The notes under the pieces are model-generated. The model saw only the letters and a list, made by a program, of their open reading frames with translations, did not search any database and was not told where the DNA came from. Below are positions 9,783 to 40,827 of a stretch of 64,000 nt of DNA, piece after piece. Position 1 is the first letter of the stretch, and the number at the start of each line of letters is the position of its first letter. A program made the position numbers and the translations under genes. This DNA is from an uncultured bacterium (GTDB lineage Bacteria; Eisenbacteria; RBG-16-71-46; CAIMUX01; WJJG01), in contig CAYZWI010000003.1 in the NCBI GenBank assembly GCA_964482205.1, positions 83,126 through 147,125 on the forward strand, written 5' to 3'.

Positions 9783-9860
9783 GCGGAGTTGACCGCGCCT
9801 GCAGGGGCTCCCCCCACCGTTAGGGGCGGACGGTCGCGCATCTTGCCGAAGGAGACGGCC

Positions 9861-13709: not shown

Positions 13710-14299
13710 GCCCGCTCACCTCCTTTCATCCCCTTTCGACGATCCGAAGGGGCATTCTGTTCAGCGAGCATCTGATGAATGGCGCGCAGGCCGTAAAAAA
13801 TCCGGGTGCGGACGGTCGCGGCCGGCACGCCGGTGATTTCGGCGATCTCGTCGGATGTGAAGCCCTGGTACTCGCGCAGCAAGATCGCGGTGCGTTGCTC
13901 GAGAGAGAGCCGCTCGAGCAAGGCCTGGGCCGTCTGCCAGCGGATCACTTCTTCCTGCGCGGGAACGAGCGACATCTCCGACAGGCGCGCGCCTTCCGCG
14001 CCCTCTTCAAGATCGAGCGACTGGAAATGAGGACGCGCTTGCGCAGCGCGATGCCAGTCGCGGCAGAGATTGAGCGCGATGTGATGCAGCCAGGCGCGAA
14101 ATTTCTCCGGCTCGCGCAAGCGACGGATGTTCAGATAGGCCTTGAGGAGCGCTTCCTGGCAGACATCCTGCGCGTCCTCGCTGGTTCCCAGCATGCGGCG
14201 CACGAAGGGAAAGAGCCCGGCATGGGCCTTGCCCGCCAGCTCATTGAACGCGCGCAGGTCTCCCTGCTGGGAAAGAACCACGAGCTCGGTATCGGTCAT
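13706..14299 (-). CDS. ECF-type RNA polymerase sigma factor (sigma-70 family)
   Basis: Region 2 (FNELAGKAHAGLFPFVRRMLG...AQDVCQEALLKAYLNIRRL) and a region-4 HTH (FTSDEIAEITGVPAATVRTRIFYGLRAI) are present. The 197-aa length fits an ECF sigma. Confidence 0.85.
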   Translation of the reverse strand: MTDTELVVLSQQGDLRAFNELAGKAHAGLFPFVRRMLGTSEDAQDVCQEALLKAYLNIRRLREPEKFRAWLHHIALNLCRDWHRAAQARPHFQSLDLEEGAEGARLSEMSLVPAQEEVIRWQTAQALLERLSLEQRTAILLREYQGFTSDEIAEITGVPAATVRTRIFYGLRAIHQMLAEQNAPSDRRKGMKGGERA

Positions 14300-18663: not shown

Positions 18664-20082
18664 TCACAGCCGTACTCGCCTCACGACGAGACAGTGGACG
18701 AGAGAATCGTGCAGCGCCTGGCCCTTGTCAGTCATCGCCGCCATCAGATACCCGCCCCCTAGAAGAACCAGCGACAGCAGCTTCAGGAGGTTGCGCATGA
18801 AAGCGCGTCGGAAGTCGACACGTCTGCCAAGTTCGTCTGTAACATGGATATTCATGATGCGCTTGCCGGGTGTGCCCTGCCATGTGGAAATCTCAAAGAG
18901 CGCGTAGTACATCGTCAATGCCAGATACGAGCCAAGTCCAATAAGAACCAATGGTGGGACTCTTAGTCGCCAGAAAAGCAGCGCAGCCAGGAAGAAGACC
19001 GGCACAAGGATCACGCCGTCCAACAAGAGCGCGGAGCCTCTCAGCCAGAACCCGGCATGGGAGAGGGGCAACTCCCCCGGGACCGCGTTCGCCCCAAGGT
19101 CTCCGACAACCTGGGATCCGCGGAGAGCCGGAGGGTTGCCTTGCCCTTCCGGGCAGGGAAGCGGGAACAAGTTGCCGCGGTGCCTGTCTTTGTCCTCCTG
19201 CCAGGCCGCGATGGGAGGTGGCGGAGCTGCCGTGTGCCAACTCGTGGCGCGTTCCAGCGCATGCCGGAAAGCCCGGATCGAAGGGAAGCGATGCTCCGGC
19301 CGTTTGGCCATGGCCTTCCACACAAGAGACTCCAATCCGGGATCGATGTTCGAAAGCAGACCCGACAGTCGCGGAGGTGCTTCCTCCATGATCTTGCGCA
19401 TGAGCAGATCATCTGTATCCGCTTCGAAAGGTCTTACCCCCGTGATCATCTCGTACATCATCACTCCAAGTGCATAGATGTCCGAGCGAGCGTCGACTTC
19501 CCGGGGATTTTGAAGTTGCTCGGGCGACATGTACGCCAAGGTACCAGGTTTCATCGCCGTCGCCGCCTTCAGCTCCTCGGAGCCAAGGACCCTTGCGACT
19601 GCAAAGTCGGTCACCTTGGCCACTAGACCGGCATCCGATCTGGTGACGAGGATATTGCTGGGTTTCAGATCCCGGTGGACGAGCTCCAATCCGTGGGCCT
19701 TTTCGAGCGCGGAGAGCACCTGGAAGGTGATGGCCATGACCTGACCAAGGGGCAGGCCGCCTCCCTGGCGGACGATCAGCTGATCCACCGGCAGGCCGTC
19801 CACATATTCCATGACGATGCCTATCGCCTGCTCATCTTCGACGAAATCGAGGACCTTCACGACATGCGGATGGACCAATTGCGCTTGAATGCGGGCCTCG
19901 GCCCGAAAGCGATCAAGCACCGCGGCGTCCTGACGGAAATGGGAATGCAGACACTTGATGGCCACCATCCTGCCGCCGTCGGGGTCCTGAGCACGGTACA
20001 CAGTGCCCATCCCGCCCTTTCCCAGAACGCCGAGGACTTGGTAGCGCCCAATTCGATCCGGGTCTGTATGCATTCCGCTCAT
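18664..20082 (-). CDS. Ser/Thr protein kinase with C-terminal RDD-family membrane domain
   Basis: Hanks kinase motifs are present (GKGGMGTVY, VAIK, HRDLKPSNIL, DFAVA, MSPEQ). The C-terminal 150 aa form an RDD-like polytopic membrane domain. The start MSGMHTDPDRIGRYQV overlaps the upstream kinase stop as TGATG. Confidence 0.8.
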   Translation of the reverse strand: MSGMHTDPDRIGRYQVLGVLGKGGMGTVYRAQDPDGGRMVAIKCLHSHFRQDAAVLDRFRAEARIQAQLVHPHVVKVLDFVEDEQAIGIVMEYVDGLPVDQLIVRQGGGLPLGQVMAITFQVLSALEKAHGLELVHRDLKPSNILVTRSDAGLVAKVTDFAVARVLGSEELKAATAMKPGTLAYMSPEQLQNPREVDARSDIYALGVMMYEMITGVRPFEADTDDLLMRKIMEEAPPRLSGLLSNIDPGLESLVWKAMAKRPEHRFPSIRAFRHALERATSWHTAAPPPPIAAWQEDKDRHRGNLFPLPCPEGQGNPPALRGSQVVGDLGANAVPGELPLSHAGFWLRGSALLLDGVILVPVFFLAALLFWRLRVPPLVLIGLGSYLALTMYYALFEISTWQGTPGKRIMNIHVTDELGRRVDFRRAFMRNLLKLLSLVLLGGGYLMAAMTDKGQALHDSLVHCLVVRRVRL

Positions 20083-21761
20083 CAGGGGTCCCTGACCACA
20101 TCGCTTTCGGTTTCGGAAACGATTTTCCATCCCGCCGAAAACCGGCGGAACCAAAGCTGTTGTTTTTCGCTCGCACGGTATCGCTTGCCGTTTGCCTGCA
20201 AGATGTCCCAGGATTTGGCGAAGGTGACGAGGGCATGGTCCGCCCCCAGAAAGTCGATGGAGACCTCGCGCACATCGTACCGAAGAACCTCTTCGAAGCG
20301 CGCAAGGGCTTTCCGCTTGTCGTCGCGGATACGGGCATTGGAGGCGTTCGTCCACCCGAAGTACCGTTCCACCTGGTCCGCATAGCACCCCATATGGGTC
20401 TCGAGGTCCCGGTTCACGAGGGAGCGCCGCCAAGTTTCGACCACTCCCAGAATCGCCTGACGGTCCTGCTCATGGGACGACGAAACAGGGTTCTCGGTCG
20501 CCACCTGCCGGACCGGCGTAGAGGAGGCGGATTGCGTGCTAGCCCGTGGAACATCCTGGATGATTGCACGTTGGCTGGCCCCTCCGTCGGAGCCTCGGAT
20601 GACAAGCACAACCATGATGACAACGATGAGTAGACCCAGGCCCAGGAGCCACACGGGAAACGGCCGGGAAGCGGAGGGACGGGAACTCCCCTCCAAAGTG
20701 GAATGATTCGTCCAGCGCTGGAGCCTCCCCTCGACGGCAGGTGCTTCGGCATCGATCGCCGCTGACCGTGACCGGCTCTCAAGCGGGAATCCGGTCCCTT
20801 CTCTCGCCCCAGCGCTCGACCGGCTGGACTGAGCCAGACCGGGAGGAGGCTGCGTCCCCGCACTCACGGAGCGCACACCCCTCGGCTCCACTTTTCCTTC
20901 GGGCGCAGCGCGATCCGTGCCTACGACCGCACCCACCGCAAGCGCCTTCAGGGCCTGCAAAAACTCCTCCGCGCTCTGGAAACGCGCGTCCGGGTTCTTC
21001 GCCATCGCCTTCAGAATGACCGCCTCAAAACCCGGGAAGATTCCCCGATAGAATCTGCTGGGCGCAGGCGCTTCCTCCGAGATGATCGCTTGCATGATTG
21101 AGAAATCCGTATCCGCATCGAAGGGAACTCTGCCCGTGGCCATCTGATAGAGAGTGACTCCCAACGAATAGATGTCGGACCTGCGGTCCACGTCTCGAGC
21201 TGCGCGAATCTGTTCGGGAGGCATGTACCAGAGCGTTCCCATCTTGGCTCCTGTCGCCGTTCGCCCCTTGCCTCCTTCCAGGATCTTGGCCACTCCGAAG
21301 TCCATTACTCGAGCCAGCGTTTCTCCCTTTACCACACTCAGCATGATGTTCGACGGCTTCAGGTCCCGATGGACCACCCCCTGGTCGTGGGCGTATCCCA
21401 CGGCCCGGAGAACCTGATCCATGATTGCCATACACCGCTCGAAGGGAATCGGGCCCGTTTCCTCGGCGATCACCTTGTCCAACGGTCGACCGTCGACATA
21501 TTCCAGCATCAAGCAGAGGAGTTCCCCCTCCTCGATGAAGTCATAGACATGGACGATGTTGGGATGGCTCAGTCGCGCCTGGATCTGCGCTTCCGCACGA
21601 AACCGTTCCCGCACCTGACAATCCCGGGCGAAGAAGGAATGGAGGACTTTCACAGCAACCGGCCGATCGAAACGCAAATCGGTCCCCCGGAAAACGGTCC
21701 CCATGCCGCCGTCGCCAAGGAACGCATCGATCCGATACGGCCCGATCTGCTCTCCGATCAT
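20082..21761 (-). CDS. Receptor-type Ser/Thr protein kinase with extracytoplasmic NTF2/SnoaL-like domain
   Basis: The N-terminal kinase domain has GDGGMGTVF, VAVK, HRDLKPSNIM, DFGVA. A single TM helix (WLLGLGLLIVVIMVVLVI) follows. The C-terminal domain (ILGVVETWRRSLVNRDLETHMGCYADQ...WFRRFSAGWKIVSE) is NTF2-like. Confidence 0.8.
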   Translation of the reverse strand: MIGEQIGPYRIDAFLGDGGMGTVFRGTDLRFDRPVAVKVLHSFFARDCQVRERFRAEAQIQARLSHPNIVHVYDFIEEGELLCLMLEYVDGRPLDKVIAEETGPIPFERCMAIMDQVLRAVGYAHDQGVVHRDLKPSNIMLSVVKGETLARVMDFGVAKILEGGKGRTATGAKMGTLWYMPPEQIRAARDVDRRSDIYSLGVTLYQMATGRVPFDADTDFSIMQAIISEEAPAPSRFYRGIFPGFEAVILKAMAKNPDARFQSAEEFLQALKALAVGAVVGTDRAAPEGKVEPRGVRSVSAGTQPPPGLAQSSRSSAGAREGTGFPLESRSRSAAIDAEAPAVEGRLQRWTNHSTLEGSSRPSASRPFPVWLLGLGLLIVVIMVVLVIRGSDGGASQRAIIQDVPRASTQSASSTPVRQVATENPVSSSHEQDRQAILGVVETWRRSLVNRDLETHMGCYADQVERYFGWTNASNARIRDDKRKALARFEEVLRYDVREVSIDFLGADHALVTFAKSWDILQANGKRYRASEKQQLWFRRFSAGWKIVSETESDVVRDP

Positions 21762-21800
21762 CTGCTGGCTCTCTCCATCTCCCGGGTCACTCGTGGATCC

Positions 21801-22898
21801 CTATCTGTAGCGGCGCACTTCGAGAATTCTGCGATTGCCGATCAAGCTGGTGCTCCCCACGCCCACGCCCTCTTCCGGCGATGCGCGGAGAAAGGTCGTG
21901 CCACCGTCCAAGAGAATGACCGGCTGGGATCGCCCGGGATCGAGAGTCGAAAGAAAGGCGATATCTCCTACCTTCGCGGAATCGACTGACACGACATTGC
22001 CCCAATCGGCTAGCGCTTCGAGCGTCCGCGGCGCCCTGATTCCCGCCAGGCGAAAGAAAAGATGAACCAGCCCTTCGGCATCCATCGCCGCCATGCTGTT
22101 CGCCCCGGTCTGGTACCGCGTCCTACGGAACTTGCGAACCGCTTCGATGGCGTCAGGTATGGGCAATGGTTCTGATAGCGGCGCCACGTTCGCTCGATCG
22201 ACGCGCACACTTGGACCGCCCGGAACCGCCAACGTCACCGAGGAATCCGCGGCACTCTGCCCCCGAGGCCGGCCTACCCCGGTCGCCCGCAGGCGGGCCC
22301 CGCACGGCAGAAAGATCCCTTGATCGCACGGCACGCCGGGAGCGGCGACGACGGTGAACGAATCCCCGGAATCCTCCATCCCATGATCGCTCTGCTCCGG
22401 CGCCAGTGCGGTGACCGGCACCCAACCCGTCGGGTCACCTCGTTCCCCAAAGCGCACTTCCCTCCAGGCCCCTTGGCTGGCAAGCACCTCCACCCGGTCC
22501 CCGACCAAGAGCTGGGCCAGACGTGAGGAGGACTCCGACGGGCTCTCGAACACGTCACTCCAGGGTCGCTGCCTGTCCTGCAACCGCAGCACGGCCTTTC
22601 CCCGCCAGGGCGCGTCCGTCGCACGTTGGGCCGCGTCAGCGGATTGTGCCGGCCCGGTTCCGCCCGTATGCCCGGAGGAGTCGCCCGCCGATCGAGGCGG
22701 GGCACCTGTCGCGCGGCTTGCGTTGGAATCGAGACCGAGCGATTCGAGGCCCGGCCCCACAAGAAACCGCCCGATCCCCGTGCCGACCGCGAAGACCAGA
22801 ACCAGGGAGACGAAGGCTCCCAAGGCCGGGCGCCGCCCCCGGGTCTTCCCGAGACGTCTGTTGCGCTGCCCATGCCGCTTCATTGGGAGTAGATCCAC
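21801..22898 (-). CDS. NlpC/P60-like pseudo-peptidase with SH3b-like domain (catalytic Cys and His replaced)
   Basis: N-terminal TM/signal anchor. An SH3b-like segment (GDRVEVLASQGAWREVRFGERGDPTGWVP) precedes a C-terminal NlpC/P60 fold. In place of the FDCSGLV catalytic motif it reads MDAEGLV. In place of the His motif it reads SQPVILLDGG. Confidence 0.6.
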   Translation of the reverse strand: MDLLPMKRHGQRNRRLGKTRGRRPALGAFVSLVLVFAVGTGIGRFLVGPGLESLGLDSNASRATGAPPRSAGDSSGHTGGTGPAQSADAAQRATDAPWRGKAVLRLQDRQRPWSDVFESPSESSSRLAQLLVGDRVEVLASQGAWREVRFGERGDPTGWVPVTALAPEQSDHGMEDSGDSFTVVAAPGVPCDQGIFLPCGARLRATGVGRPRGQSAADSSVTLAVPGGPSVRVDRANVAPLSEPLPIPDAIEAVRKFRRTRYQTGANSMAAMDAEGLVHLFFRLAGIRAPRTLEALADWGNVVSVDSAKVGDIAFLSTLDPGRSQPVILLDGGTTFLRASPEEGVGVGSTSLIGNRRILEVRRYR

Positions 22899-25129
22899 TG
22901 GTAGTTCTTATAGTCTCCGAGCACTCGCTTGATGTAGTTCCTGGTCGCCTGAAATGGGATGTTCTCGATGAATTCGTCCACAGGCTGATCGGCCGGCTTG
23001 GCGTTCCACCACTTTTCAACCTGCTCGGGTCCGGCGTTGTAACTGCAGATAGCGGGGAACCAGTCGCCTCCAAACCGCTGGACCATCTTGGCCAGATAGT
23101 ACGTTCCGTACCGAATGTTCGTCTGGGGATTGACCAGGTCGGCTTTCCCCGGCACCGGAAGGCCCCTTTCCTTCGCAATCTGCTCGGCCGTTCCGGGCAT
23201 GAGCTGCATCAGGCCAATCGCACCCACACCGGACGTGACCACAGGGGAAAACTTGCTCTCGTTGCGAATCAACGCCGCCGTCAGGTGAGCGTCGATTCCG
23301 TTCTTGAGAATGCCCGTTTCCTCGATGGCTTGCCTGATCTCCTCCTTGTAGTTGTACGGATAGAGGATTTGCCAGAACTCGATAGGAACCAAGTCGCCGT
23401 TCCTGGATCCGGACAGCACGAAGTCCCGATAGCTGTCGACCAGCATGTCGATCGCTTCCCAACTCTGACCTGCTCGACTGTATAAGTAGGCCAAGGAGAG
23501 CCTCAGCTTCGGATCGGTCGCCGCGGAAGGAACGGAGGCCAGTTCCGCCGCGGCGAATTCGTACAGTCCGATCGCGCGCAGATTGACCGCCCGGGCATAC
23601 CCTCCCTCTCCAGGGGGGCCGGCCGCGGCATCCGTGAGCTTGTCGAAGGCGGGAAAGGGCTTGAGGTTTCCGAACTGTCTCGGTTGTTGGCCCAGAGCCA
23701 GCAGGTTCTCGACGGCCCGATGTCCGTAGTAGTCCTGGGGGTACTCGCGGACGAGCTGCTGGTACAGCTCGATCGCCCCCGCCCGATCGGAATCCGCGGT
23801 GAAGCGAGCAATCCAGTAGAGAGCCGCTTTCTTATAGCCGGTGTCTGAATGTTCAGCCAACAAGCGGCGCATGGTGGCCACCGCCGCTGCCGTGTTGCCT
23901 TGATTCCTCTGGAACCAGGCCAGCTTCCAGAGCGCGTCATGGGCCACGTCGCTCTCTCCCGCCATTCCGACCACCTGCTCGAGCACCGGCAGCGCCTGTT
24001 CGATGCTCACGTCGTTTCCCAGATGCACGCCGTAGGCGTACATCGCATCCGCGGCGCTGGAACTTCCCGGATATTGCCCCTTCAGGAATTCCGCCCATTG
24101 GCGGATGGCATCGGTGTTGCCCGAGGTCCGGCGGAGCGCCGCGATAGCCGAGAGCACGGCCGATGGAACGCAATTCGACGAGGGATACCGCGATCGCAAG
24201 TCCCGGACGGTCTGCACGCAAGCATCGTTTTCTCGAAGATCGTAGAGGCACTGCGCGCGCGTCAGAAGAACTTCGTCGGTTCGCGGGTCGCCCGGATGGG
24301 AGCCCAGGAAGGTCTCGATCTCTTGCTTCATGGCGCTCTTCAGACCTGCGGCCCCCAGGCTTGATATGAACTCAAACCGCCGCGCGGAAGACATTGTGCG
24401 AGGCGCGAGCCCCGCCGAGCGTTCGAGGTCGCGGGCGCGATCTCTGGCCTGCACGGCCCAGGGGCTGCGCGGAGTGTCGAACCATGTCGTTTCGTAAAGG
24501 CGGTGGGCTTCAGCCGCGTTCCCCGCCTGGCGCTCCGCCTCGGCGGTCAGCCAACGAGCCTCGTGGATTTCCCGGGCCTTCGGCCAGCGAGTGAGAAAGG
24601 TCAACCCGGCGGACGCCGCCTGGGGCCATCGCTGTTGGGCGCTTGCCAACTTGAGAAGCAGGAATTGCGCTTCCCTCTCCAGGACCGGGCTTCCGCCCGG
24701 TCCCGTTGCGCTCAAGATCTCCTGCAGGCGATCGAAGGCCAGGGTGTACTGGTCCTGCAGCCCACCTTCGATCACTGCGCGGGCGACGAGCACTTTTCCG
24801 TACTCGGGCCCCACCGTGCCCGCTGAAGCGCGCTCCAGATAAGGGAGAGCTTCCGAATAGCGGCGCATGCCGATCAACATGTTGCCCAGCACGAGAGCCG
24901 CACGGTCACCGACCGCGTCCTTTTCGTACGTCTCCACGACCCCCTGCAGCAGGTCGACGGCCTGAGATGTCTCCCCTCGGCTGAAGACATCCAAGGCCGT
25001 GTCGATGTCGGTTGGGCTGGACTTGCCCCTCGAGGCTTTCTCCTCCTCTTGGCAGGATGTCCCGGCAAGGATCAAGCAGACGGACAGGAAGATCAGCGTA
25101 GGCAGCGAACGCACGCCACGAGCGGACAT
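22880..25129 (-). CDS. Soluble lytic murein transglycosylase (Slt70-like)
   Basis: Signal peptide MSARGVRSLPTLIFLSVCLILAGTSC. A long alpha-superhelical N-terminal region precedes a C-terminal SLT domain (IRNESKFSPVVTSGVGAIGLMQLMPGTA, SYNAGP). The listed ORF is extended to 25195. I start the gene at the Met of MSARG. Confidence 0.8.
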   Translation of the reverse strand: MSARGVRSLPTLIFLSVCLILAGTSCQEEEKASRGKSSPTDIDTALDVFSRGETSQAVDLLQGVVETYEKDAVGDRAALVLGNMLIGMRRYSEALPYLERASAGTVGPEYGKVLVARAVIEGGLQDQYTLAFDRLQEILSATGPGGSPVLEREAQFLLLKLASAQQRWPQAASAGLTFLTRWPKAREIHEARWLTAEAERQAGNAAEAHRLYETTWFDTPRSPWAVQARDRARDLERSAGLAPRTMSSARRFEFISSLGAAGLKSAMKQEIETFLGSHPGDPRTDEVLLTRAQCLYDLRENDACVQTVRDLRSRYPSSNCVPSAVLSAIAALRRTSGNTDAIRQWAEFLKGQYPGSSSAADAMYAYGVHLGNDVSIEQALPVLEQVVGMAGESDVAHDALWKLAWFQRNQGNTAAAVATMRRLLAEHSDTGYKKAALYWIARFTADSDRAGAIELYQQLVREYPQDYYGHRAVENLLALGQQPRQFGNLKPFPAFDKLTDAAAGPPGEGGYARAVNLRAIGLYEFAAAELASVPSAATDPKLRLSLAYLYSRAGQSWEAIDMLVDSYRDFVLSGSRNGDLVPIEFWQILYPYNYKEEIRQAIEETGILKNGIDAHLTAALIRNESKFSPVVTSGVGAIGLMQLMPGTAEQIAKERGLPVPGKADLVNPQTNIRYGTYYLAKMVQRFGGDWFPAICSYNAGPEQVEKWWNAKPADQPVDEFIENIPFQATRNYIKRVLGDYKNYQWIYSQ

Positions 25130-25157
25130 AGCTCTTTCCTCCTTGCTTGCAGGACTG

Positions 25158-26561
25158 TCAGGGAAAGGAGACGGAGATCGTCTTCCCGGGTTCAATGCTC
25201 ACTTTCTTCTCTTGCTGGTGATGGCCCCACCAAACCTTGACCGTGTGTCCCGTGGCCGACAAGTTGAGAAATTCATGTTTCGTGGAGTTCTTCCCGCTGG
25301 AATAGAAATCGTCCACATAGGCACGACCGGCCGGTTGCATGTTCACAATCAGGGTTCCGGTGGTCGGCACCTGGCCTCCGCCTGTGTCTTCGATCGGGTC
25401 AGGGTCGTGTCCATTCGGGATCACCAAAATCGCCACGACTGCCGCCGCGATCAAGAGCACGATCGGAACCAGGTAGCGAAGTGGCGATTGGCCCTTTCTC
25501 GGCGCGAGGCCCTGCACCTTCTGCGCTGGTGCGTCTGGTGGCCTTGGCCGGAGGTCGTTTCCCGCTCCCTCGCCCGGCGCTCCCCGCCCACCTTCCGGAG
25601 TCGGGGCCGCCACCTGCCCGGTGGCAACCGAAACGCCTGGTGGGACCGCCATGCCTGGACCCGCCTGTTCCTTTGAAGCCGCGGCGGCGCTCCCCGGCGT
25701 CTCGGCCGGCGCCTCGGGCACCAGTGGCGGAAGTGTCCCCGCGTCCAGAAGCGCCTCGAGAAACTCCTCGCAGTTTGAAAAACGCTTGTCGGGGTCCTTG
25801 GCCATGGCGCGCAGAATCACCTGCTCGAACTTCTTGGAGATATGGGGATATCGCTCACTGGGCAACGGCGGATCCTGCGTAATGACCTTGGTCATCACCT
25901 CGTATTCGCTGTCGCCCTGGAATGGCAGGACGCCCGTCGCCATTTCATAGAGCGTGCAACCGAGCGAGTAGATGTCGGACCGCGCATCGACATCCTTCGG
26001 CGAGCGGATCTGCTCCGGGGAGCTGTAGAAGAAGGTCCCCAGCTTCGCGTCCGGATTCGTTCGCCTCTTTTCATCGCCGAGGATCTTTGCGATCCCGAAG
26101 TCCATGATCTTCGCATGCACGCGCTTGCCGAACCATTGAATCATGATGTTGGAGGGTTTGATGTCCCGGTGGATCAATCCCTTGGCGTGGGCGAAGCCGA
26201 GTGCGTTCAGGACCTGGGACATGATCTCGCAGCACATCGGGTAGGGCATCGGGCCGGTCACTTCGGCCAGAACCTCCGTCAGGCTCTTGCCGTCGACGTA
26301 CTCCATGACAATGGCGGCCACGTGCTCGTCAAGAAGGAAGTCGTGAACGGTGACGATGTTGGGATGCTGCAGGCGAGCCTGGATGACCGCCTCGCTCTTG
26401 AACCGCTCCAAGGTCGCCGGATCGCGCGCGAGGTGCTCATGAATGACTTTGATCGCGACCGGAGAGTCGAAGCGCGGGTCCCGTCCCTTGTAGACGGTTC
26501 CCATGCCTCCGTCACCGATCACGCCGGTAATCTCGTAGCGCCCGATCGACTCCATCTCCAC
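25158..26561 (-). CDS. Receptor-type Ser/Thr protein kinase with extracytoplasmic PEGA domain
   Basis: Kinase motifs GDGGMGTVYKG, VAIK, HRDIKPSNIM, DFGIA. A Pro-rich linker and a TM helix (YLVPIVLLIAAAVVAILVI) follow. The C-terminal PEGA-like beta domain is GTLIVNMQPAGRAYVDDFYSSG...HTVKV. Confidence 0.8.
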   Translation of the reverse strand: MEMESIGRYEITGVIGDGGMGTVYKGRDPRFDSPVAIKVIHEHLARDPATLERFKSEAVIQARLQHPNIVTVHDFLLDEHVAAIVMEYVDGKSLTEVLAEVTGPMPYPMCCEIMSQVLNALGFAHAKGLIHRDIKPSNIMIQWFGKRVHAKIMDFGIAKILGDEKRRTNPDAKLGTFFYSSPEQIRSPKDVDARSDIYSLGCTLYEMATGVLPFQGDSEYEVMTKVITQDPPLPSERYPHISKKFEQVILRAMAKDPDKRFSNCEEFLEALLDAGTLPPLVPEAPAETPGSAAAASKEQAGPGMAVPPGVSVATGQVAAPTPEGGRGAPGEGAGNDLRPRPPDAPAQKVQGLAPRKGQSPLRYLVPIVLLIAAAVVAILVIPNGHDPDPIEDTGGGQVPTTGTLIVNMQPAGRAYVDDFYSSGKNSTKHEFLNLSATGHTVKVWWGHHQQEKKVSIEPGKTISVSFP

Positions 26562-26591
26562 TCCGCAATTGACGTCCGCCTCGCCAGCCCT

Positions 26592-28427
26592 CTACTTGCC
26601 GCGCCTCGTCCGCGGGGCCGGCTTGGTCTGCCCGGTCGGCCGGGTCTGCCCAGCCGACCCGGTCTTCCTGATGTCCGCGGTGGCTGGTTTGCCCGCATCC
26701 GTTCTCTGGCCCGCTCGCAAGGCGGCGGGCTGCGCCTGAGCAGCCGCCGTCGGCTGAGCCGCCGGCTCTACCGCGCCTTGCTGCTGAACACGATCCGCTG
26801 GAGCCGATCGCGCACGAGGAGTGTTCGCGTCAACATCCGAATCGTCCGAGGCTCTCCGTGACAACCCTTGGATATCGTCAGGCAGGTGCTGCCGGAGCGT
26901 GTCGCTCTTTGCCCGTGCGATCCACTCGACTGGCTCGAGTCTCATCGAAGAGGCCACGGTCCGCGCCCAGACTCCGAACACCACCAAGCCGGTGCCGCTG
27001 GAGGCAATGGCTGCAATCCTCCCGTCCGGCAAGAGATCGACATGCACCGAGGCGCCCGTCGTCGGGAGAACATTCCCATCAAGACGAAGGGGCTCGGGCG
27101 CCTGGTCCATTGTGAGCTCGGATCCTAAAGACCGGACTCGGAGCAGAAGGTAGTGCGTTCCCGGTCCGAGAGCGCCTTGCGGCAAACCCGATGCCGACGA
27201 GGATGGATCGACATGCAATTGGCCGCACTGAGAAAGAAGACTGATCAGGTCCCCCTTCTCTTCTCCGACGTACCGGCGCATACGCAGAAGACACGCGCTG
27301 GCGGTGTCGGACGGATCGGGCAGGTAGAAACCACAGAGCGCCACCAGATCGGTTTGGGGAGAAGCCGGAGCGAACCGAATGCTCATGTACGGAGCTCCCG
27401 CCGCCTGGTCCTGCAGAATCAGCCGGAGCTCGCCGCCGAAGTCATCTCCCGTGTCGGCCGGCCCTCGAATCACGTCATTCAGCGTCTGGAATGCGCCAGT
27501 CGACCAGGCCGCTGAGGGAGGCCTGTGGGCCGAATACAGGTAGTACGCCGAGCCCACGATGATACCCAGCAAGAGAGCCGCCGCAGCGGGAATCCAGTGC
27601 CACGTGAGTTTCCGGCGCCCGGCGGGTCCGAAATCCGGAACCGGCGCTTGGCTGCGCATGCGCGACCACGTGCCTCGCGGTCGTCCGCGATGGATTATCT
27701 GCACGGTGGCGTTGTCGTGACCACCGCGCTGATTCGCCAAGTCAACGAGGCGCTTGCATGCTCTCTGGGGTCCGTATTGCCGGCTCATCCAGGCCATTTC
27801 CTTGGGTGAGACGGCGTCATACAGCCCGTCCGTGCACATGATGAGGCTGTCGCCTTCCTCCAATCGGATTGGCATCGTGCAGATGTCTGGATCGATGTCG
27901 GAGGCCGGTCCGATCACGCGCTCGAGGACGTGTCGCTTGGGATGCTCACGCGCCTGTTCCACCGTGATCAGGCCGTCGTCGATCATTCTTTGCACGAGGG
28001 TATGATCCCGGGTGACTTGGGTGGCTTCGTCTTCGTGCAAATGGTAGATGCGGCCGTCTCCGATGTGACCCCACCAGGCACGATTCTCCTCCACCACGAC
28101 CACATCGAGGGTGGCGCCCATGTTGGCGAGCTCCGGCCTTTCTTCCTTGACGCTCTGGCAGGCAAAATTCGCTTCCCGCATGGCCCGGGCAATCAGCCTG
28201 CGGGGAGTCTGCCCCAAGCCTTTCTGGAACACCGCGTGCACCGCCTGCACGACAGTGCGGCTCGCTTCTCGCCCGCCCGACGCCCCACCCATTCCATCGG
28301 CGACCACGAACAGTCGCTGGGAGCCGATTTGGCAATAGAGATGGTAGTCCTCATTCGTCTCTCGAACTCTGCCGACATCACTGTGGTTGCTGACAAGCAG
28401 CGGGATCTGGCGCCGGAACAGGCTCAT
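26592..28427 (-). CDS. PP2C-family Ser/Thr protein phosphatase, membrane-anchored with extracytoplasmic C-terminal domain
   Basis: PP2C motifs are present (SDVGRVRETNEDY, FVVADGMGG, MCTDGL, GGHDNATV). A TM helix (WIPAAAALLLGIIVGSAYYLY) is followed by a periplasmic region of about 300 aa. Confidence 0.85.
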   Translation of the reverse strand: MSLFRRQIPLLVSNHSDVGRVRETNEDYHLYCQIGSQRLFVVADGMGGASGGREASRTVVQAVHAVFQKGLGQTPRRLIARAMREANFACQSVKEERPELANMGATLDVVVVEENRAWWGHIGDGRIYHLHEDEATQVTRDHTLVQRMIDDGLITVEQAREHPKRHVLERVIGPASDIDPDICTMPIRLEEGDSLIMCTDGLYDAVSPKEMAWMSRQYGPQRACKRLVDLANQRGGHDNATVQIIHRGRPRGTWSRMRSQAPVPDFGPAGRRKLTWHWIPAAAALLLGIIVGSAYYLYSAHRPPSAAWSTGAFQTLNDVIRGPADTGDDFGGELRLILQDQAAGAPYMSIRFAPASPQTDLVALCGFYLPDPSDTASACLLRMRRYVGEEKGDLISLLSQCGQLHVDPSSSASGLPQGALGPGTHYLLLRVRSLGSELTMDQAPEPLRLDGNVLPTTGASVHVDLLPDGRIAAIASSGTGLVVFGVWARTVASSMRLEPVEWIARAKSDTLRQHLPDDIQGLSRRASDDSDVDANTPRARSAPADRVQQQGAVEPAAQPTAAAQAQPAALRAGQRTDAGKPATADIRKTGSAGQTRPTGQTKPAPRTRRGK

Positions 28428-29959
28428 CAGACCTCCCCACGGAACTGAAGCACGACGCCGCCAATACGAAACCGCTGCCCGGACGTCAAGAGCGTGGGTT
28501 GATCGATCCGCTCGCCCCCGGCGAGGTACGTGCCATTCGTGCTTTGCAGGTCCTCCAGCCAGAACTGATGGTCGCGGAATTCGATGACCGCGTGGTGGGA
28601 GGAAACGCGCTCTTCATCCAAGACGATGTTGTTGTCCAGGGCCCGGCCCAACGACGTGCGCGCCGGCAGCAAGGGCAGATTCGATCCGGCCAGCGGGCCG
28701 CTTTCCACGTGCAGCGAGCCGGCGCGATAGGCCTGCAGGACCGATGTCCCGGGATCGTACATGGTCCGTTGCTTGGGCCGCGCAGCCGGCGGGGCGGCGG
28801 GGCGAGCATCCGAGCCGGACTGGACGACTCGCTGTTCCATCTCCTTGATGCTGGCCGTCGCCTGCGCAAGCTGGCCTTCCAGCTTCTGAAACGCGTCGGC
28901 CTGCTGCCTCTTTTCCTCTTCCACGCGATGCATCTCGCCCTGATACGCGAGGTGACGGGCGCGCGATCTGAACCAGAGCAACGCCGAGCACGCCGCAACG
29001 CCCACGAGGGCGATTCCGACGTAGAGCAGCCAAGGCGTCTTTTGGGGAGGGATCGCATGAAGGGGCACGCGGAAGGAGAAACTCCGCCGGACCTGGGTGG
29101 TCGGCATCTTCACCTCGAGCACGGCCGCATGTTCGGAACCGTCCGCCGGCAAGCTCGAAGTCCAGACGAACTCCCAGCGCGATTCCAGGTTGGTCCGCAT
29201 GGCCGCAAGCTTGTCCTTCCACCGCTGCCCGCTCTCGAAAGGCAGGAAGACTCCTCCCGTTTCGGTGGACAGCCGCTGAACGTTGCGCCAGTCCGTCTGG
29301 CTGCCGGACTTGATGCCGATCCCCATGATGCTGGCCCCCACCTTGGCGGCCATTTCCCGGCAGGATTCCAGGGTGTAGGCCCCCCCCTCGTTCTTCCCGT
29401 CCGAGATCAGCACGAGCACCTTGCGTTCGGGCAACCCTTCCTGCTGGAGCAACTCGAGCCCGCGCACGACGCCGTAGAACAGCTCCGTGCGCTTTCCGGG
29501 CGTCTCCATTTCACGCATCGCGGCAACCAAGGCCGAGCGGTCAACCGCGAAATCGATGAGTTGCTGCTGATCATCGTGAAAGGCCACGAGGGCACAGCGG
29601 TCGCCGTCCTCCAACCGCCCCACGAAATCGACCAAGGCAGTTCTCACCTCCGGCATCACTTCCTTCATCGAACCGGAGACGTCGACTGCAAACACGAACC
29701 CAATGCCGTTGACCAGACCGATCTTGCGCAATTCGCCCTTCACCGGCTGGTCCTTCTCCAGCACCGTCACATCCTCGACGTTCAGGCTGCTGACCAGCTC
29801 GCTGTGCTCGGACATGACTTCGAACCGAATGGCCATGCGGGGATATCCGGTCGTGTCGATGCCGGCATTCTGCAGCTCGCACACTGCGGCGTGGACGCCC
29901 GGCACAACAGAGAGCGCTACGCAGGCGGCAATCGACAGGCGGAGACAAGGCATCATCAC
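28427..29959 (-). CDS. vWA-domain / FHA-domain transmembrane protein
   Basis: Signal peptide MMMPCLRLSIAACVALSVVPGVHA. The vWA MIDAS motif is FVFAVDVSGSMKE...LISDG. A TM helix (WLLYVGIALVGVAACSALLWF) and a coiled coil follow. The C-terminal FHA domain is VSSHHAVIEF...STNGTYL. The stop overlaps the PP2C start. Confidence 0.8.
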   Translation of the reverse strand: MMMPCLRLSIAACVALSVVPGVHAAVCELQNAGIDTTGYPRMAIRFEVMSEHSELVSSLNVEDVTVLEKDQPVKGELRKIGLVNGIGFVFAVDVSGSMKEVMPEVRTALVDFVGRLEDGDRCALVAFHDDQQQLIDFAVDRSALVAAMREMETPGKRTELFYGVVRGLELLQQEGLPERKVLVLISDGKNEGGAYTLESCREMAAKVGASIMGIGIKSGSQTDWRNVQRLSTETGGVFLPFESGQRWKDKLAAMRTNLESRWEFVWTSSLPADGSEHAAVLEVKMPTTQVRRSFSFRVPLHAIPPQKTPWLLYVGIALVGVAACSALLWFRSRARHLAYQGEMHRVEEEKRQQADAFQKLEGQLAQATASIKEMEQRVVQSGSDARPAAPPAARPKQRTMYDPGTSVLQAYRAGSLHVESGPLAGSNLPLLPARTSLGRALDNNIVLDEERVSSHHAVIEFRDHQFWLEDLQSTNGTYLAGGERIDQPTLLTSGQRFRIGGVVLQFRGEV

Positions 29960-30175
29960 TTCTGCCCTCCCTGGTCAAGGACCCGAACAGTGCCTCGGGC
30001 GTGAGCAATCGGTCCCTGGGATGCGCGACGGCCACCCGACTGGCCAGGAAACAGGCCATGCCGGATCTCGACGAGGACGTTCTGGCTCGTGGGTCGACGG
30101 GAGGATTCCGGGCATGTCGCAGGCGCGAAACGGATCCTCCCGACCTGGCAGACGCGCATCTGTCAACCGCCCCGG

Positions 30176-30925
30176 TTAGATCATGTAGATCGTGAAGACC
30201 GAGCGCTTCCCGAGTTCGATCGAATCCCGGTTCTGCAAGAGAACGGCCCCCTCCGCAAACAGATCCTGCTGATTGACCTTGGTGCCGTTCATGGAATCAC
30301 AGTCCTTGATGTAGAACTGACCGTCCTGAAACCGAATGACCGCATGCCGTCCCGAAATCGTGGGATCCCAGTCGACGCAGATCTCACACTCTCTTTCGGA
30401 TCCGATGAGATTCCGGCCCTCCCGCAGTCGAAAATCTCGACCCGTCGGCCCTTGGGAGAAAGTCACCAACCAACCCACCAGCTTGCGCTCGGAAGAAGAA
30501 GCCCGGCCTGCCGGGAGACCCGGTTGCTCCGGTGCCGCCTGGACTCCCGGATCGTAGACCGTCTTCCCCTTGTCGCTCCGACCTCCGCCACCCCCTTCCA
30601 TGACCGTGCGAGGCTTCGGAGAGGATCCTCGGGCCTGGTCGCCGCGATCTCCGGTCGACGGCTGCTCCAGGATCGTGGCCCCTTTGGTGAACGCCCCTGG
30701 AGGCCCAACGGGAGGATTGGCGGAAGTGCCCGGGCTTTGGTTTCGATGGCGCGCGGTTGGCGGACAGTATTGGCACTCCGTCCAGGTCGGGTCCATGATA
30801 TGCCCGTTTGGGCAGAGCCTGGCATTCAGCTGGATTCCGCACCGTTCGCAGTAGCCATTGATTGGTTTCACTTCTGCCCGGCAGTTGGCACAGTACATGG
30901 TGCCCCTCCATTTCACTTGCCTCAC
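30176..30925 (-). CDS. FHA-domain protein with N-terminal zinc-ribbon
   Basis: Cys4-type zinc ribbons are present (CANCRAEV...CERCG and CPNGH...CQYC). A Pro/Gly-rich linker leads to a C-terminal FHA domain (GRHAVIRFQDGQFYIKDCDSMNGTKVN). This is the first gene of the minus-strand operon. The true start may be MYCANC at 30898. Confidence 0.7.
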   Translation of the reverse strand: MRQVKWRGTMYCANCRAEVKPINGYCERCGIQLNARLCPNGHIMDPTWTECQYCPPTARHRNQSPGTSANPPVGPPGAFTKGATILEQPSTGDRGDQARGSSPKPRTVMEGGGGGRSDKGKTVYDPGVQAAPEQPGLPAGRASSSERKLVGWLVTFSQGPTGRDFRLREGRNLIGSERECEICVDWDPTISGRHAVIRFQDGQFYIKDCDSMNGTKVNQQDLFAEGAVLLQNRDSIELGKRSVFTIYMI

Positions 30926-31376
30926 GGTATAGAGAACTGAGCAAGTTCCATACTAGGTAATAGTGACGCAAGGCGCAACCATGCGAAACTTGCCCGGTGG
31001 TGGCCCCCGATCGCCATTTCGACGGCCTGCCCCTGCCGGCACGAACCTCCCCCTGGGTTTCAGAAGCTTTTCCGATGTCGCAGGCGACGCAGCTGCGTCA
31101 CTTGCGCCTTCCCGGCAGAAGCTATTCCCTTCATTTGGAATTCCTTGTCGGCGTATCTTCGCGAAGACTCTGCATCCTGGCCACGCCAGCGGCGGTCGGT
31201 TGCCGCATGCGGCTCGTTATCCGCATCTGCGCAAAAAGATTGACTCTCCTCACGGTTGCGTTCCACTATCAGAGACGATCAGGACATGGCTGACATCGAG
31301 TGTTGCGATTCCGTAGCATTTGCGGTCTTCGGTCGTTCGTGTCGCTTCACAACCGTTCAACGCGAGGGTCCCCTCT

Positions 31377-40813: not shown

Positions 40814-40827
40814 CAATCTTCCTTTCC

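Follow-up and report, generated by a model that had tools for sequence, protein, structure and literature searches.

A putative envelope Ser/Thr phospho-signalling operon with an embedded murein-cleaving gene pair

The window analysed here is a 64-kb stretch of DNA from an uncultured bacterium, and all coordinates are given as positions within the whole of it. Its segment 18664-30925 is filled, as the original prediction had it, by eight co-directional open reading frames of the minus strand (g1-g8 in order of transcription), while a further gene, g0, transcribed divergently from g1, lies outside this segment and was absent from that prediction:

31320..32624, plus strand: g0, SPFH/Band7 protein with C-terminal FHA domain (Pfam Band_7 6e-21, FHA 6e-16)
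30899..31319, no strand: divergent g1-g0 intergenic region, read from the sequence, presumed promoter region for both genes
30176..30898, minus strand: g1, double zinc ribbon, Pro-rich linker and FHA domain (Pfam DZR, FHA)
29957..30175, no strand: g1/g2 gap of 219 nt, read from the sequence
28427..29956, minus strand: g2, vWA-TM-FHA protein of 509 aa (Pfam VWA residues 89-235, FHA 435-500)
26592..28427, minus strand: g3, PP2C phosphatase with transmembrane (TM) segment and tail (Pfam PP2C_2)
25158..26555, minus strand: g4, Hanks-type Ser/Thr kinase (Pfam Pkinase 5e-55)
22880..25129, minus strand: g5, exported TPR-superhelix and SLT lytic transglycosylase (Pfam SLT 3e-29, TPRs)
21801..22883, minus strand: g6, SH3b and NlpC/P60 protein (Pfam SH3_3; NLPC_P60 weak, 32.7 bits)
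20082..21761, minus strand: g7, Ser/Thr kinase with TM and NTF2-like ectodomain (Pfam, hydropathy)
18664..20082, minus strand: g8, Ser/Thr kinase with RDD domain (Pfam Pkinase, RDD 6.5e-21)

Three gene pairs overlap at their starts and stops, as had been claimed (g2/g3 by 1 nt, g5/g6 by 4 nt and g7/g8 by 1 nt), and three other junctions are gaps of 28-39 nt, so the proposed spacing below 60 bp holds everywhere except between g1 and g2, separated by 216-219 nt. A Shine-Dalgarno-like GGAGG precedes most of the starts, and terminator- or promoter-like sites across the operon do not exceed chance expectation. Judged by these overlaps, short distances and the lack of excess sites, g1-g8 look like one transcription unit, with the 219-nt gap offering room where an internal promoter could reside. 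This gap has no unusual RNA structure (z = -0.33); in five relatives its position is taken by an FHA-FHA gene of roughly 390-520 aa, of which no remnant is detectable here. Codon usage of g5 and g6 is the same as that of the remaining operon genes, so that nothing indicates the recent insertion of lytic genes considered in the original prediction. The locus is bordered by ordinary metabolic genes, with a convergent BKACE gene ending 37 nt from g8; composition is normal and no mobile elements were found in the flanks. Within 30899..31319 repeats are short and at chance level only, an Rfam search gave no match, and the sole sigma-70-like match, on the plus strand (31290-31319), occurs in a region where the count of such matches is at chance level. 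Hydropathy places an N-terminal TM segment of g0 at residues 29-47, counted from TTG at 31320; the NCBI call of 415 aa corresponds to a start near 31377. The gene is called in locus L006 and was not seen beside the core described below in other core loci.

Nearly all domains attributed to g1-g8 by the original prediction are recovered by Pfam, the exception being PEGA on g4, and the membrane topologies it proposed are supported by hydropathy (TM segments in g2, g3, g4 and g7, three in g8, a signal peptide in g5 and an anchor in g6). The product of g1 (240 aa from ATG 30898 after GGAGGGG, with a 240-aa product on record) has no TM segment by hydropathy and is cytoplasmic. Its linker carries K-G-K-T113-V-Y-D-P-G together with further K-G-x-T-x-x-E motifs, and K-x-K-T-x-[FY]-D-P-G is present in 4/4 orthologues (39-52% identical in L001, L098 and L100). 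A similar motif, K-Q-R-T398-M-Y-D-P-G, is conserved in g2, which also has a coiled coil and for which hydropathy gives a signal peptide, an extracytoplasmic vWA domain, a TM segment at 309-327 and a cytoplasmic FHA domain; among 22 family members collected by exhaustive search Thr398 is found in 22/22. The MIDAS of g2 is intact, with D92, S94 and D186 invariant in the same family, S96 being S or T, and T157 being T in 21/22; at each of these last two positions there is a single conservative S/T exchange. In g3 a cytoplasmic Stp1-like PP2C (residues 1-250; NCBIfam Stp1 220 bits, cutoff 230) is followed by a TM segment at 279-297. The extracytoplasmic tail beyond it, some 310 aa long, is variable, partly of low complexity and unconserved among orthologues, and its AF2 model is unusable (pLDDT 34). 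For FHA domains pT+3 specificity has been stated (bioRxiv preprint 10.64898/2026.01.23.701218). The FHA domain of g1 has G-S in place of canonical G-R and thus lacks the canonical Arg. To our knowledge, a basic context such as surrounds the Thr motif here is atypical of characterised bacterial Hanks-kinase sites, and both peculiarities weigh against the interpretation favoured below.

All catalytic motifs are present in g4 (VAIK, HRDIKPSN, DFG, SPE), which has a TM segment at 361-379; its ectodomain of 86 aa is rich in beta structure. The PEGA domain assigned to this ectodomain was not borne out: no match appeared in Pfam even at E<=1, an ectodomain that does match PEGA resembles it weakly (28% identity along 64 aa, E 0.01), and the single-sequence AF2 model, all-beta, is of low confidence (pLDDT 54). 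Neither Pfam nor AF2 models revealed a recognisable murein-binding fold in the g3 or g4 ectodomains. The kinase domain of g7 is 51% identical to that of g4, and beyond its TM segment (370-388) the ectodomain matches CaMKII_AD/DUF4440/SnoaL_3; g8 has three TM segments within its RDD domain. The catalytic motifs of the kinases are complete, with DFA instead of DFG in g8. Every signalling protein had been supposed to possess a distinct extracytoplasmic sensor; this agrees with g2, g3, g4 and g7 but not with the wholly cytoplasmic g1, nor with g8, which has a membrane domain and no ectodomain.

The 749-aa product of g5 (from ATG at 25129), for which hydropathy indicates a signal peptide, belongs to the Slt-like family 1; its best PDB matches are Slt of P. 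aeruginosa and, ranked lower, Slt70 of E. coli, and its orthologues are P0142-P0145. The catalytic Glu-Ser is kept (RNES over RQES in the alignment with P. aeruginosa Slt), and g5 is predicted to be an active lytic transglycosylase. The ATG of g6 overlaps the g5 stop in ATGA, and the two genes are probably translationally coupled. By its N-terminal anchor g6 would be membrane-anchored or exported. Aligned to MepS/Spr, it has lost all three catalytic residues (Cys to Ala, the first His to Ser/Gln, the second to Arg), which upholds the suggestion of a dead NlpC/P60; weak NCBIfam matches include RipC and inactive RipD. Since the same positions are likewise non-catalytic in orthologues of about 31% identity (L012, L013), the loss points to long-term selection for a putative non-catalytic role. 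SdpA and SdpB were reportedly stimulated by DipM in the study of that protein. As precedents, DipM, a dead LytM, binds these soluble lytic transglycosylases (PMC10336132), and the NlpC/P60 protein RipA partners RpfB (PMC3585148).

Genes g1-g4 constitute a core (Zn-ribbon-FHA, vWA-TM-FHA, PP2C and g4-like kinase) recurring at 37-47% identity in six other metagenomic loci: L001, the P0025 contigs, L097, L098/L099, L100 and a JGI 131-kb contig. Kinases adjoining the core in L097 and L098 are 54% and 52% identical to g4, and in L001 the identity is 75% over 40 aa before the contig ends. The SLT and dead NlpC pair, with genes overlapping, recurs in three loci (the JGI contig, L012 and L013). The joint arrangement, in the same order, is confined to the window and the JGI contig, the contigs of two further relatives ending before the position where the lytic pair would stand. 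In the JGI contig the order is DZR-FHA, vWA-FHA, PP2C, STK, TPR-SLT, SH3-NlpC/P60 and STK, with proteins 47-54% identical, so the synteny is conserved. Such occurrence in two lineages only counts against the favoured interpretation as well. The core stands without the pair in at least three lineages (P0025 contigs, L098/L099 and L100), and the pair stands without kinases or core in L012 and L013, so the two modules need not go together and their coupling could be fortuitous.

It is accordingly conceivable, if rather unlikely, that the locus is a general multi-input Ser/Thr/FHA island whose targets, such as transcription factors or division proteins, lie elsewhere, and that the pair is a housekeeping murein-turnover unit which in a single lineage came to lie between kinase genes, co-transcribed but neither regulated by the kinases nor feeding into them. 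Besides the separability of the modules, this would fit the FHA-sigma54 activator (enhancer-binding protein) adjoining the core in L100, a more obvious cytoplasmic output; the inability of cytoplasmic phosphorylation to modify periplasmic enzymes directly; and the local paralogy of the operon kinases (45-51% identity), typical of expanding kinase islands, with at least four kinases on the JGI contig. A neutral passenger, however, is not expected to persist in place, whereas the order STK, SLT, NlpC, STK is kept between loci whose proteins are about 50% identical, the genes lying some 30 nt apart, and four signalling proteins expose domains in the compartment of the pair. Moreover, among 80 distant Slt loci, 77 lack kinase, PP2C and FHA homologues within 10 kb (a kinase or PP2C is nearby in 3/80), in line with the opinion that a lytic transglycosylase embedded among kinases is unusual.

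The original prediction also compared the locus with "vWA/FHA/PP2C/STK ternary conflict systems", but no systems of that description exist; those called ternary by Kaur et al. 2020 are MoxR-vWA-VMAP, and no MoxR was found at the locus or across the window. The real analogues are the TerY-P triad, Arn, the T6SS threonine phosphorylation pathway and the actinobacterial PknB locus, the last agreeing with the proposed likeness to the FhaA/PstP/PknB module. TerY-P shares the combination of vWA, PP2C and STK, but TerY is cytoplasmic, whereas the vWA domain here is extracytoplasmic and the zinc ribbon belongs to the FHA protein, not to the kinase. Since an association of this triad with defence is known (PMC11090510), one could imagine that it senses infection or envelope attack and triggers murein lysis through the transglycosylase as abortive infection; a reverse transcriptase and HRDC gene beside the core in one relative, and the fast-evolving g3 ectodomain, might be read likewise. 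We regard this as very improbable given the differences from TerY-P, the unremarkable flanks and composition, and the dead partner peptidase g6, which is no toxic effector. PADLOC returned no specific match: the kinases hit generic kinase-domain models only, PP2C gave a weak PDC-M21C match, and the vWA, FHA, SLT and NlpC proteins were unmatched.

The T6SS pathway employs a kinase with vWA ectodomain, a PP2C and an FHA protein, PpkA signalling via Fha1 and PppA (PMC3224232), and is a precedent for the scheme favoured below too. By this likeness g5-g6 might open murein for a machine that spans the envelope, such as a pilus, a secretion system or a flagellum-like structure, encoded elsewhere and triggered by the kinase/PP2C/FHA proteins. 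The best NCBIfam match of g5 is the Borrelia flagellar-assembly transglycosylase BB0259, the FHA domains hit the Pfam model of the YscD cytoplasmic domain, vWA-FHA proteins from a different subfamily are encoded next to Tad pilus genes, and a membrane-associated block of six genes, including an HSP70/actin-like ATPase and a ZnR-TM-PEGA protein, precedes the pair in L012 and L013. The BB0259 score (196 bits, cutoff 234) and that of TagH are nevertheless under the curated NCBIfam cutoffs; pilus, secretion and flagellar genes are absent throughout the window, and machine genes are absent from the readable flanks of the six other core loci, making this explanation improbable.

We favour, at a probability of roughly one half, a chromosomal, vertically inherited envelope Ser/Thr phospho-switch operon that captured a murein-cleaving pair, the locus thus joining two older modules, g1-g4 and g5-g6. 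In it g1 would serve as Zn-ribbon-FHA adaptor, g2 as bitopic receptor with metal-binding vWA outside and FHA inside, g3 as membrane PP2C eraser and g4 as membrane Hanks kinase, with the further paralogous receptor kinases g7 and g8 and divergent g0 completing the locus. We infer that the kinases, gated by differing extracytoplasmic or membrane modules, would phosphorylate the Thr-x-x-Asp/Glu linker motifs of g1 (T113) and g2 (T398) and probably each other. The pThr marks, read by three FHA domains, would build a multivalent membrane-bound assembly dissolved by PP2C. This assembly may position or gate g5-g6 through the ectodomains of g2, g3, g4 and g7, with g6 as murein-binding regulator or targeting subunit of g5; alternatively, the ectodomains may sense muropeptides released by the pair. 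The core also adjoins other candidate outputs, such as the activator in L100, an observation unfavourable to this scheme. As a further precedent, PstP is located within a cell-wall locus (PMC6554272). The "dedicated relay" for murein remodelling put forward originally is not supported, because the modules are separable, and would at most be a lineage-specific use of a general one. Among bacterial signalling clusters the locus represents a known kind in a rare variant, and its organisation suggests that wall cutting may be wired to phospho-signalling.

Eight long head-to-tail ORFs on the minus strand (18664-30925) bear out the operon proposed in the original prediction, and public gene calls coincide with our own for g1 (240 aa), g2 (509 aa), g3 (611 aa) and g4 (465 aa). 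Spacings at the junctions were computed from the most plausible starts, each having a GGAGG-like site in front.

The operon, its divergent neighbour and the spacing of its junctions
31320-32624, plus strand: g0, SPFH/Band7 gene with a C-terminal FHA domain, divergent from g1
18664-30925, minus strand: operon of g1 (double zinc ribbon and FHA), g2 (vWA-TM-FHA), g3 (PP2C), g4 (kinase), g5 (Slt-type lytic transglycosylase), g6 (SH3b and dead NlpC/P60), g7 and g8 (kinases)
g1/g2 junction: +219 nt
g2/g3 junction: -1 nt
g3/g4 junction: +36 nt
g4/g5 junction: +28 nt
g5/g6 junction: -4 nt (ATGA)
g6/g7 junction: +39 nt
g7/g8 junction: -1 nt

Starts and stops thus overlap in three gene pairs (g2/g3, g5/g6 and g7/g8), exactly as had been claimed, while the accompanying statement that all other gaps are shorter than 60 bp holds for every junction except g1/g2. 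The cluster is limited downstream by a convergent BKACE gene and upstream by g0, which the original prediction did not include. The rest of the 64 kb encodes metabolic enzymes of ordinary kinds, transporters, proteases and DNA repair functions, and no MoxR, secretion or pilus machinery or mobile elements were found among the scanned ORFs of this window. Scanning the locus for promoters and terminators gave counts at chance level and is therefore of no help in deciding on internal promoters; the Rfam search returned no match, and repeats in the divergent intergenic region were at chance level as well. A second lytic transglycosylase (SLT_2, MltB-like) is encoded at 7592-9388 on the minus strand, about 9 kb past the 3′ end of the operon, so that g5 is not the only enzyme of this kind nearby. 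The segment 11731-14299 contains a gene for an ECF sigma factor (13706-14299, minus strand). The two ORFs that come after it in the same direction (12687-13709 and 11731-12690) gave no match in Pfam and may encode an anti-sigma factor and a partner. A minus-strand cluster of MttB-like methyltransferase, B12-binding protein and homocysteine S-methyltransferase genes (39223-43141) suggests demethylation of methylated amines or glycine betaine, while a 1120-aa subtilase with CarboxypepD_reg, MAM-like and C-terminal FlgD_ig domains (47016-50378, minus strand) together with a SurA-like PPIase (55425-57212) points tentatively to a diderm envelope, the C-terminal domain being perhaps of a sorting type.

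Domains assigned earlier to the signalling proteins were mostly recovered by Pfam: double zinc ribbon and FHA in g1, VWA and FHA in g2, PP2C in g3, Pkinase in g4, Pkinase and NTF2-like in g7, Pkinase and RDD in g8. According to the hydropathy scan combined with the positive-inside rule, g2 is predicted to have a cleavable-looking signal peptide, an external vWA domain, one transmembrane (TM) segment, a coiled coil and a cytoplasmic FHA domain; g3, g4 and g7 would expose their tails outside, keeping the catalytic domain in the cytoplasm on the other side of a single TM segment; g8 has three predicted TM segments at its end, and g1 has none. The PEGA domain proposed for g4 gave no Pfam match at E ≤ 1; a single-sequence AF2 model of this ectodomain contains six strands at low confidence (pLDDT 54), and its similarity to the PEGA-scoring ectodomain from the metagenomic contig L012 is weak (28% over 64 aa, E 0.01). 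All three kinases carry the glycine loop, VAIK, HRDxKPSN and SPE/PPE (Pfam Pkinase E 1e-49 to 1e-55). The motif set of an active Hanks-type kinase (Gly-rich loop, VAIK Lys, HRD, DFG, APE/SPE) is complete in g4 and g7, DFA replacing DFG in g8. Pairwise identity of 45-51% between the kinase domains marks these proteins as local paralogues. The phosphatase g3 is Stp1-like (220 bits against a cutoff of 230); its ectodomain is unconserved even in close orthologues, ends with a low-complexity basic tail and yielded an unusable AF2 model.

The vWA domain of g2 has a complete MIDAS site (DVSGS...T157...D186, formed by D92, S94, S96, T157 and D186). Across 22 family members D92, S94 and D186 are invariant, the position of S96 is occupied by S in 20 and by T in 2, and that of T157 by T in 21 and by S in one. 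The FHA motifs G-R, S-x-x-H and N-G are all present in g2 and g0. In g1 the latter two are kept and G-S (G-T in the related locus L001) replaces the canonical G-R, making phosphothreonine (pThr) binding by this domain uncertain. The linker between the TM segment and the FHA domain of g2 contains the motif K-Q-R-T398-M-Y-D-P-G, and each of the 22 relatives in the alignment, the most distant being 25% identical, has Thr at the T398 column, preceded by basic and followed by hydrophobic and aromatic residues. A similar motif, K-x-K-T-x-[FY]-D-P-G, lies about 30-40 residues ahead of the start of the FHA match in four of four g1 orthologues, which also have repeated K-G-x-T-x-x-E motifs. As FHA binding depends on the pT+3 residue (bioRxiv preprint 10.64898/2026.01.23.701218), the Thr-x-x-Asp/Glu arrangement fits this dependence, and the motifs around T113 of g1 and T398 of g2 may be read as candidate phospho-acceptor and FHA-docking sites.

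For the two remaining genes, Pfam confirmed TPR and SLT in g5 and SH3b and NlpC/P60 in g6. Hydropathy revealed a signal peptide in g5 and an N-terminal anchor in g6, so both products are predicted to act outside the membrane. The designation of g5 as Slt70-like proved appropriate: besides TPR it has the SLT domain (Pfam 3e-29), its best PDB relatives are Pseudomonas aeruginosa Slt and Escherichia coli Slt70 (E 2e-24 to 3e-22), RNES of g5 aligns with RQES at the catalytic Glu of P. aeruginosa Slt, and GLMQ and YNAG motifs are readable in the translation. An SLT domain with the E-S pair, preceded by an alpha-superhelical domain, places g5 in family 1 (Slt70-type) of lytic transglycosylases, as a family member and not as an Slt70 orthologue, given 107 bits against the equivalog cutoff of 536. 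The SLT domain at the C-terminus after the N-terminal alpha-superhelix and the aligned Glu-Ser are common to E. coli Slt70 and P. aeruginosa Slt, although only the catalytic domain aligns, the N-terminal region of g5 being longer and of TPR type. The catalytic death attributed to g6 was equally justified, all three catalytic residues being replaced as compared to MepS/Spr: the nucleophile Cys by Ala (MDAEG versus IDCSG), the first His by Ser/Gln and the second His by Arg (FLRAS versus FVHAS). By its sequence g6 thus belongs to the NlpC/P60 fold family but is a pseudoenzyme. Its orthologues from L012 and L013, two metagenomic relatives having the lytic pair, are only about 31% identical to g6 and carry Gly, Pro and Glu at the catalytic positions, implying that the loss is old and that a non-catalytic role has been maintained.

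Relatives were collected in several ways. Pattern scans with g2 and P0002 over genome and metagenome contig collections found nothing, and the word-index search missed most relatives of g2; the family was exposed by an exhaustive HMMER search, giving 53 cluster representatives at E ≤ 1e-30, and the plan of signal peptide, MIDAS-containing vWA, TM segment and FHA within 430-620 aa was observed in at least 80 of the best 150 matches. Synteny was read from the contigs of g2, g3 and g5 orthologues. A core of five to six genes (DZR-FHA, FHA-FHA, vWA-TM-FHA, TM-PP2C and FHA(-TM)) is present at 37-47% identity in six further loci: L001, the P0025 contigs, L097, L098/L099, L100 and a 131-kb JGI contig. 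Four of these loci have a g4-like kinase directly after or before the core, 52-75% identical in the kinase domain where measurable. The window has neither the FHA-FHA nor the FHA-TM gene, and the 219-nt g1/g2 gap occupies the usual FHA-FHA position; neither tblastn nor blastn detected a remnant of the FHA-FHA gene in this gap, and its RNA folds no better than shuffled sequence. Just upstream of the core in L100, where the lytic pair is absent from the flanks read, there is an FHA-sigma54 activator; through this enhancer-binding protein (4230-6086, 1.5 kb from the core), which combines FHA, sigma54-interaction AAA+ and HTH_8 domains, the signalling module may act on transcription. In the P0025 contigs (ENA ERZ1426824) an RVT_1 reverse transcriptase, an HRDC protein and a kinase-FGE-sulfatase fusion are encoded on the opposite strand immediately past the core (6612-10396). 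Two further families turned out to have unrelated contexts: the next-nearest PP2C (P0026) belongs to an ECF sigma locus, while the family with vWA, Big_7 and FHA domains (P0005) is found at a Tad pilus locus. The latter, a distinct family of 674 aa, is conserved in L002-L005 (10001-12025) beside the Tad pilus assembly genes TadE, RcpC, CpaF-like T2SSE and TadB/C.

The lytic pair, with overlapping genes, was found at 41-54% identity in the JGI contig, L012 and L013, the dead state of NlpC/P60 in relatives being read in the last two. The conservation of synteny expected by the original prediction is observed in one of these loci: only in the JGI contig are core and pair both present and arranged as in the window, the genes there being DZR-FHA, FHA-FHA, vWA-FHA, PP2C, STK, TPR-SLT and SH3-NlpC/P60, followed by two small ORFs, an STK and then further FHA and STK genes. 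Since gene order is kept in a clearly divergent relative, the juxtaposition is not due to chance. The contigs of L001 and L097 end at or just after the g4-like kinase and are uninformative regarding the pair, which is absent from the flanks read of the P0025 contigs, L098 and L100. In L012 and L013 the pair is preceded by six unrelated genes, including those for an HSP70/actin-like ATPase and a ZnR-TM-PEGA protein. The GTDB collection, in which the window's lineage is absent, yielded only distant Slt homologues from other phyla (≤33% identity over alignments extending beyond the SLT domain, 36-45% for the domain only); a kinase or PP2C lies within 10 kb in only 3 of 80 loci from other phyla. 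Slt homologues more distant than those of L012 and L013 have no NlpC partner. The operon combines, in a lineage-specific manner, two modules that are each conserved on their own.

Such modularity bears on two alternative readings. The lytic pair may be a passenger having no coupling to the kinases; it does travel without the core in L012 and L013, and the core without it in L100, while the shared order in the JGI contig makes this unlikely. Base composition and codon usage show no sign that the lytic genes are foreign to the operon. The pair may also open murein, as a specialised space-maker, for a machine whose genes lie elsewhere; its company of six unrelated genes in L012 and L013 would be compatible with such service, yet this reading is improbable, no pilus, secretion or flagellar gene having been found among the scanned ORFs of the window. 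The six genes form a conserved block ahead of the pair (L012 957-9961, L013 437-9506) and encode a lipoprotein with a DxSxS motif, a 4-TM protein, a 756-aa protein with a GVGGTGAA start, an 818-aa HSP70/actin-like ATPase (weak matches), a TM protein and the ZnR-TM-PEGA protein. Assignment of the 756-aa protein of L012 as tubulin/FtsZ-like by its GVGGTGAA signature found no PDB or Pfam support. The block is reminiscent of the tubulin/HSP70/vWA membrane systems described by Kaur et al. (2020), although a GTPase was not observed in it.

Comparison with described systems places the locus among Hanks kinase/PP2C/FHA envelope-signalling operons. The best functional analogue, by virtue of FHA proteins, TM-PP2C, paralogous kinases and embedded murein enzymes, is the actinobacterial cell-wall/division locus fhaA-fhaB-pstP-rodA-pbpA-pknA-pknB, with which the operon shares FHA adaptors, a membrane PP2C, paralogous receptor kinases and embedded peptidoglycan enzymes (PMC6554272); here g3 (PP2C and TM) and the FHA proteins g1 and g2 are co-operonic with the kinases. 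The resemblance to FhaA/PstP/PknB noticed earlier is therefore valid for gene types and does not extend to PASTA, RodA/PbpA or any equivalog cutoff. Pfam gave no PASTA match in the kinases, which reach 285-329 bits with the NCBIfam model PknB_PASTA_kin (cutoff 450), the match covering mainly the kinase part (to position 273-274 in g4 and g8, 379 of 563 in g7). No SEDS (RodA) or PBP domain was detected in the scanned ORFs of the window, and neither the FhaA nor the FhaB equivalog cutoff was reached, FhaB/FipA being the best NCBIfam match of the g2 FHA region (88 bits versus 125). The embedded enzymes are lytic here (Slt-type and dead NlpC/P60) and synthetic in the actinobacterial locus (RodA, PbpA), and the vWA ectodomain receptor and the zinc-ribbon FHA protein further distinguish the operon from it.

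Three more systems come close: the threonine phosphorylation pathway of T6SS, the Arn module of archaea and the DRA0331-0334 operon of Deinococcus. In P. aeruginosa H1-T6SS, PpkA senses via its vWA ectodomain and acts via Fha1 and PppA, Fha1 being an FHA protein that nucleates an assembly once phosphorylated (PMC3224232). Common to both systems are an extracytoplasmic vWA on a bitopic signalling protein, a Hanks kinase, an antagonistic PP2C and FHA proteins; vWA is fused to FHA here and to the kinase in PpkA, no T6SS genes were found among the scanned ORFs of the 64-kb window, and TIGR03354 VI_FHA (TagH/Fha) gave 34-39 bits versus a cutoff of 120.

The Arn module of Sulfolobus comprises ArnA (zinc ribbon-FHA), ArnB (vWA), kinases ArnC/ArnD and phosphatase PP2A, and the Deinococcus operon encodes vWA, STK, FHA and PP2C, multi-pThr-dependent FHA complexes being an established mechanism (bioRxiv preprints 10.64898/2026.08.11.744115 and 10.64898/2026.01.23.701218). 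The ArnA-ArnB complex requires multiple pThr for its formation (bioRxiv preprint 10.64898/2026.08.11.744115), and DRA0333 is an orthologue of FraH (bioRxiv preprint 10.64898/2026.01.23.701218). The operon shares with Arn the ArnA architecture (g1) and the co-encoded vWA partner, kinases and phosphatase. The Arn vWA is cytoplasmic and contacts the zinc ribbon, whereas that of g2 is predicted outside the membrane, which makes a contact of this type impossible. The output of Arn is surface filaments or transcription, and neither the Arn nor the Deinococcus loci contain murein enzymes. Zinc ribbon followed by FHA is also the architecture of cyanobacterial FraH.

Likeness to "vWA/FHA/PP2C/STK ternary conflict systems", invoked in the original prediction, is mistaken: what Kaur et al. 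(2020) described as ternary systems are made of MoxR-vWA with VMAP, iSTAND or FtsH (PMC7159879), and all these defining parts are absent. Neither the eight genes nor other scanned ORFs of the window contain an AAA+/MoxR domain, no STAND or FtsH-like gene adjoins the operon, and the vWA of g2 is extracytoplasmic and fused only to FHA, unlike the cytoplasmic vWA with C-terminal effector domains in ternary systems. The actual triad with vWA, PP2C and STK domains is TerY-P. TerY-like vWA proteins are cytoplasmic, whereas here vWA is secreted and membrane-anchored, and three FHA domains are present. Both systems co-encode vWA, PP2C and kinase families and a zinc ribbon, the last being located in TerY-P on the kinase, as a C-terminal zinc ribbon/OB fold (PMC11090510), and here on the FHA protein g1, the kinases having instead a TM segment with an ectodomain or RDD. 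In spite of this common domain set, a TerY-P-like defence module is a highly improbable reading of the operon: PADLOC returned only generic kinase matches and none for the vWA protein (g2, E ≤ 1e-3) or the FHA proteins, and tellurite-resistance, restriction or nuclease neighbours were not found.

The lytic pair has parallels of its own. DipM reportedly stimulates the lytic transglycosylases SdpA and SdpB. It is an inactive LytM protein binding these soluble enzymes (PMC10336132). In both cases a dead member of an endopeptidase family accompanies a soluble lytic transglycosylase, the dead domain being NlpC/P60 with SH3b in g6 and LytM in DipM. RipA similarly exemplifies an NlpC/P60 protein partnered with a glycosidase, RpfB (PMC3585148), and g6 weakly matches the NCBIfam model of inactive RipD. 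None of the DipM, RipA-RpfB and RipD systems is embedded in a kinase operon, and the g5-g6 pairing is a genomic one (4-nt overlap).

Taken together, the analysis bears out most of the original observation, including the existence of the operon. It encodes writers (three receptor kinases), an eraser (membrane PP2C) and three FHA readers, one of them being a receptor with an external MIDAS site (g2), along with a predicted periplasmic pair of a lytic transglycosylase with catalytic Glu-Ser and a conserved pseudo-endopeptidase with murein-type SH3b. The reading we favour, at a probability of about one half, is that of an envelope phospho-signalling assembly linked to the murein-cleaving pair g5-g6. 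The kinases would phosphorylate the conserved Thr motifs and one another, FHA-pThr contacts would form a multivalent membrane assembly to be reset by PP2C, and ectodomains on the outer face may connect this assembly to g5-g6, either positioning or gating cleavage or sensing muropeptide products. A more far-reaching proposal, which we regard as distinctly unlikely, is that vWA-TM-FHA proteins of about 500 aa couple the two sides of the membrane in both directions, much as integrins do, binding a ligand at the external MIDAS site and reading pThr in the cytoplasm. In the lineage of the window, such proteins would hold the Slt-type enzyme and dead NlpC/P60, as its regulator, on a multivalent FHA-pThr scaffold under the control of kinases and PP2C, and Hanks-type phosphorylation would switch murein cleavage on and off, or position it, in a probable diderm.

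Among operons of this class the locus is distinguished by the fusion of vWA outside to FHA inside, by the number of FHA readers and by the embedded lytic transglycosylase with dead NlpC/P60. To our knowledge, the ways in which bacteria restrain lytic transglycosylases are largely obscure, and the Hanks-kinase control of the wall that we are aware of (PknB, StkP, PrkC) concerns synthesis in Gram-positive or actinobacterial cells. A conserved operon placing an Slt-type enzyme and a pseudo-endopeptidase amid kinases, PP2C and g2 is a testable candidate for phospho-control of murein cleavage. Proteins with a signal peptide, vWA, TM segment and FHA make up at least 80 clusters at 50% identity, and we know of no characterised member. 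Through the locus, the function of this sizeable family, in which the Thr motif is invariant, becomes approachable for the first time. The strongest points of the finding are this candidate receptor family and the possible connection of phospho-signalling to the cleavage of murein. Should the coupling be incidental, the locus would simply add one more kinase/FHA island; if the integrin-like coupler reading is true, it would represent the lytic counterpart of PknB control over wall synthesis.
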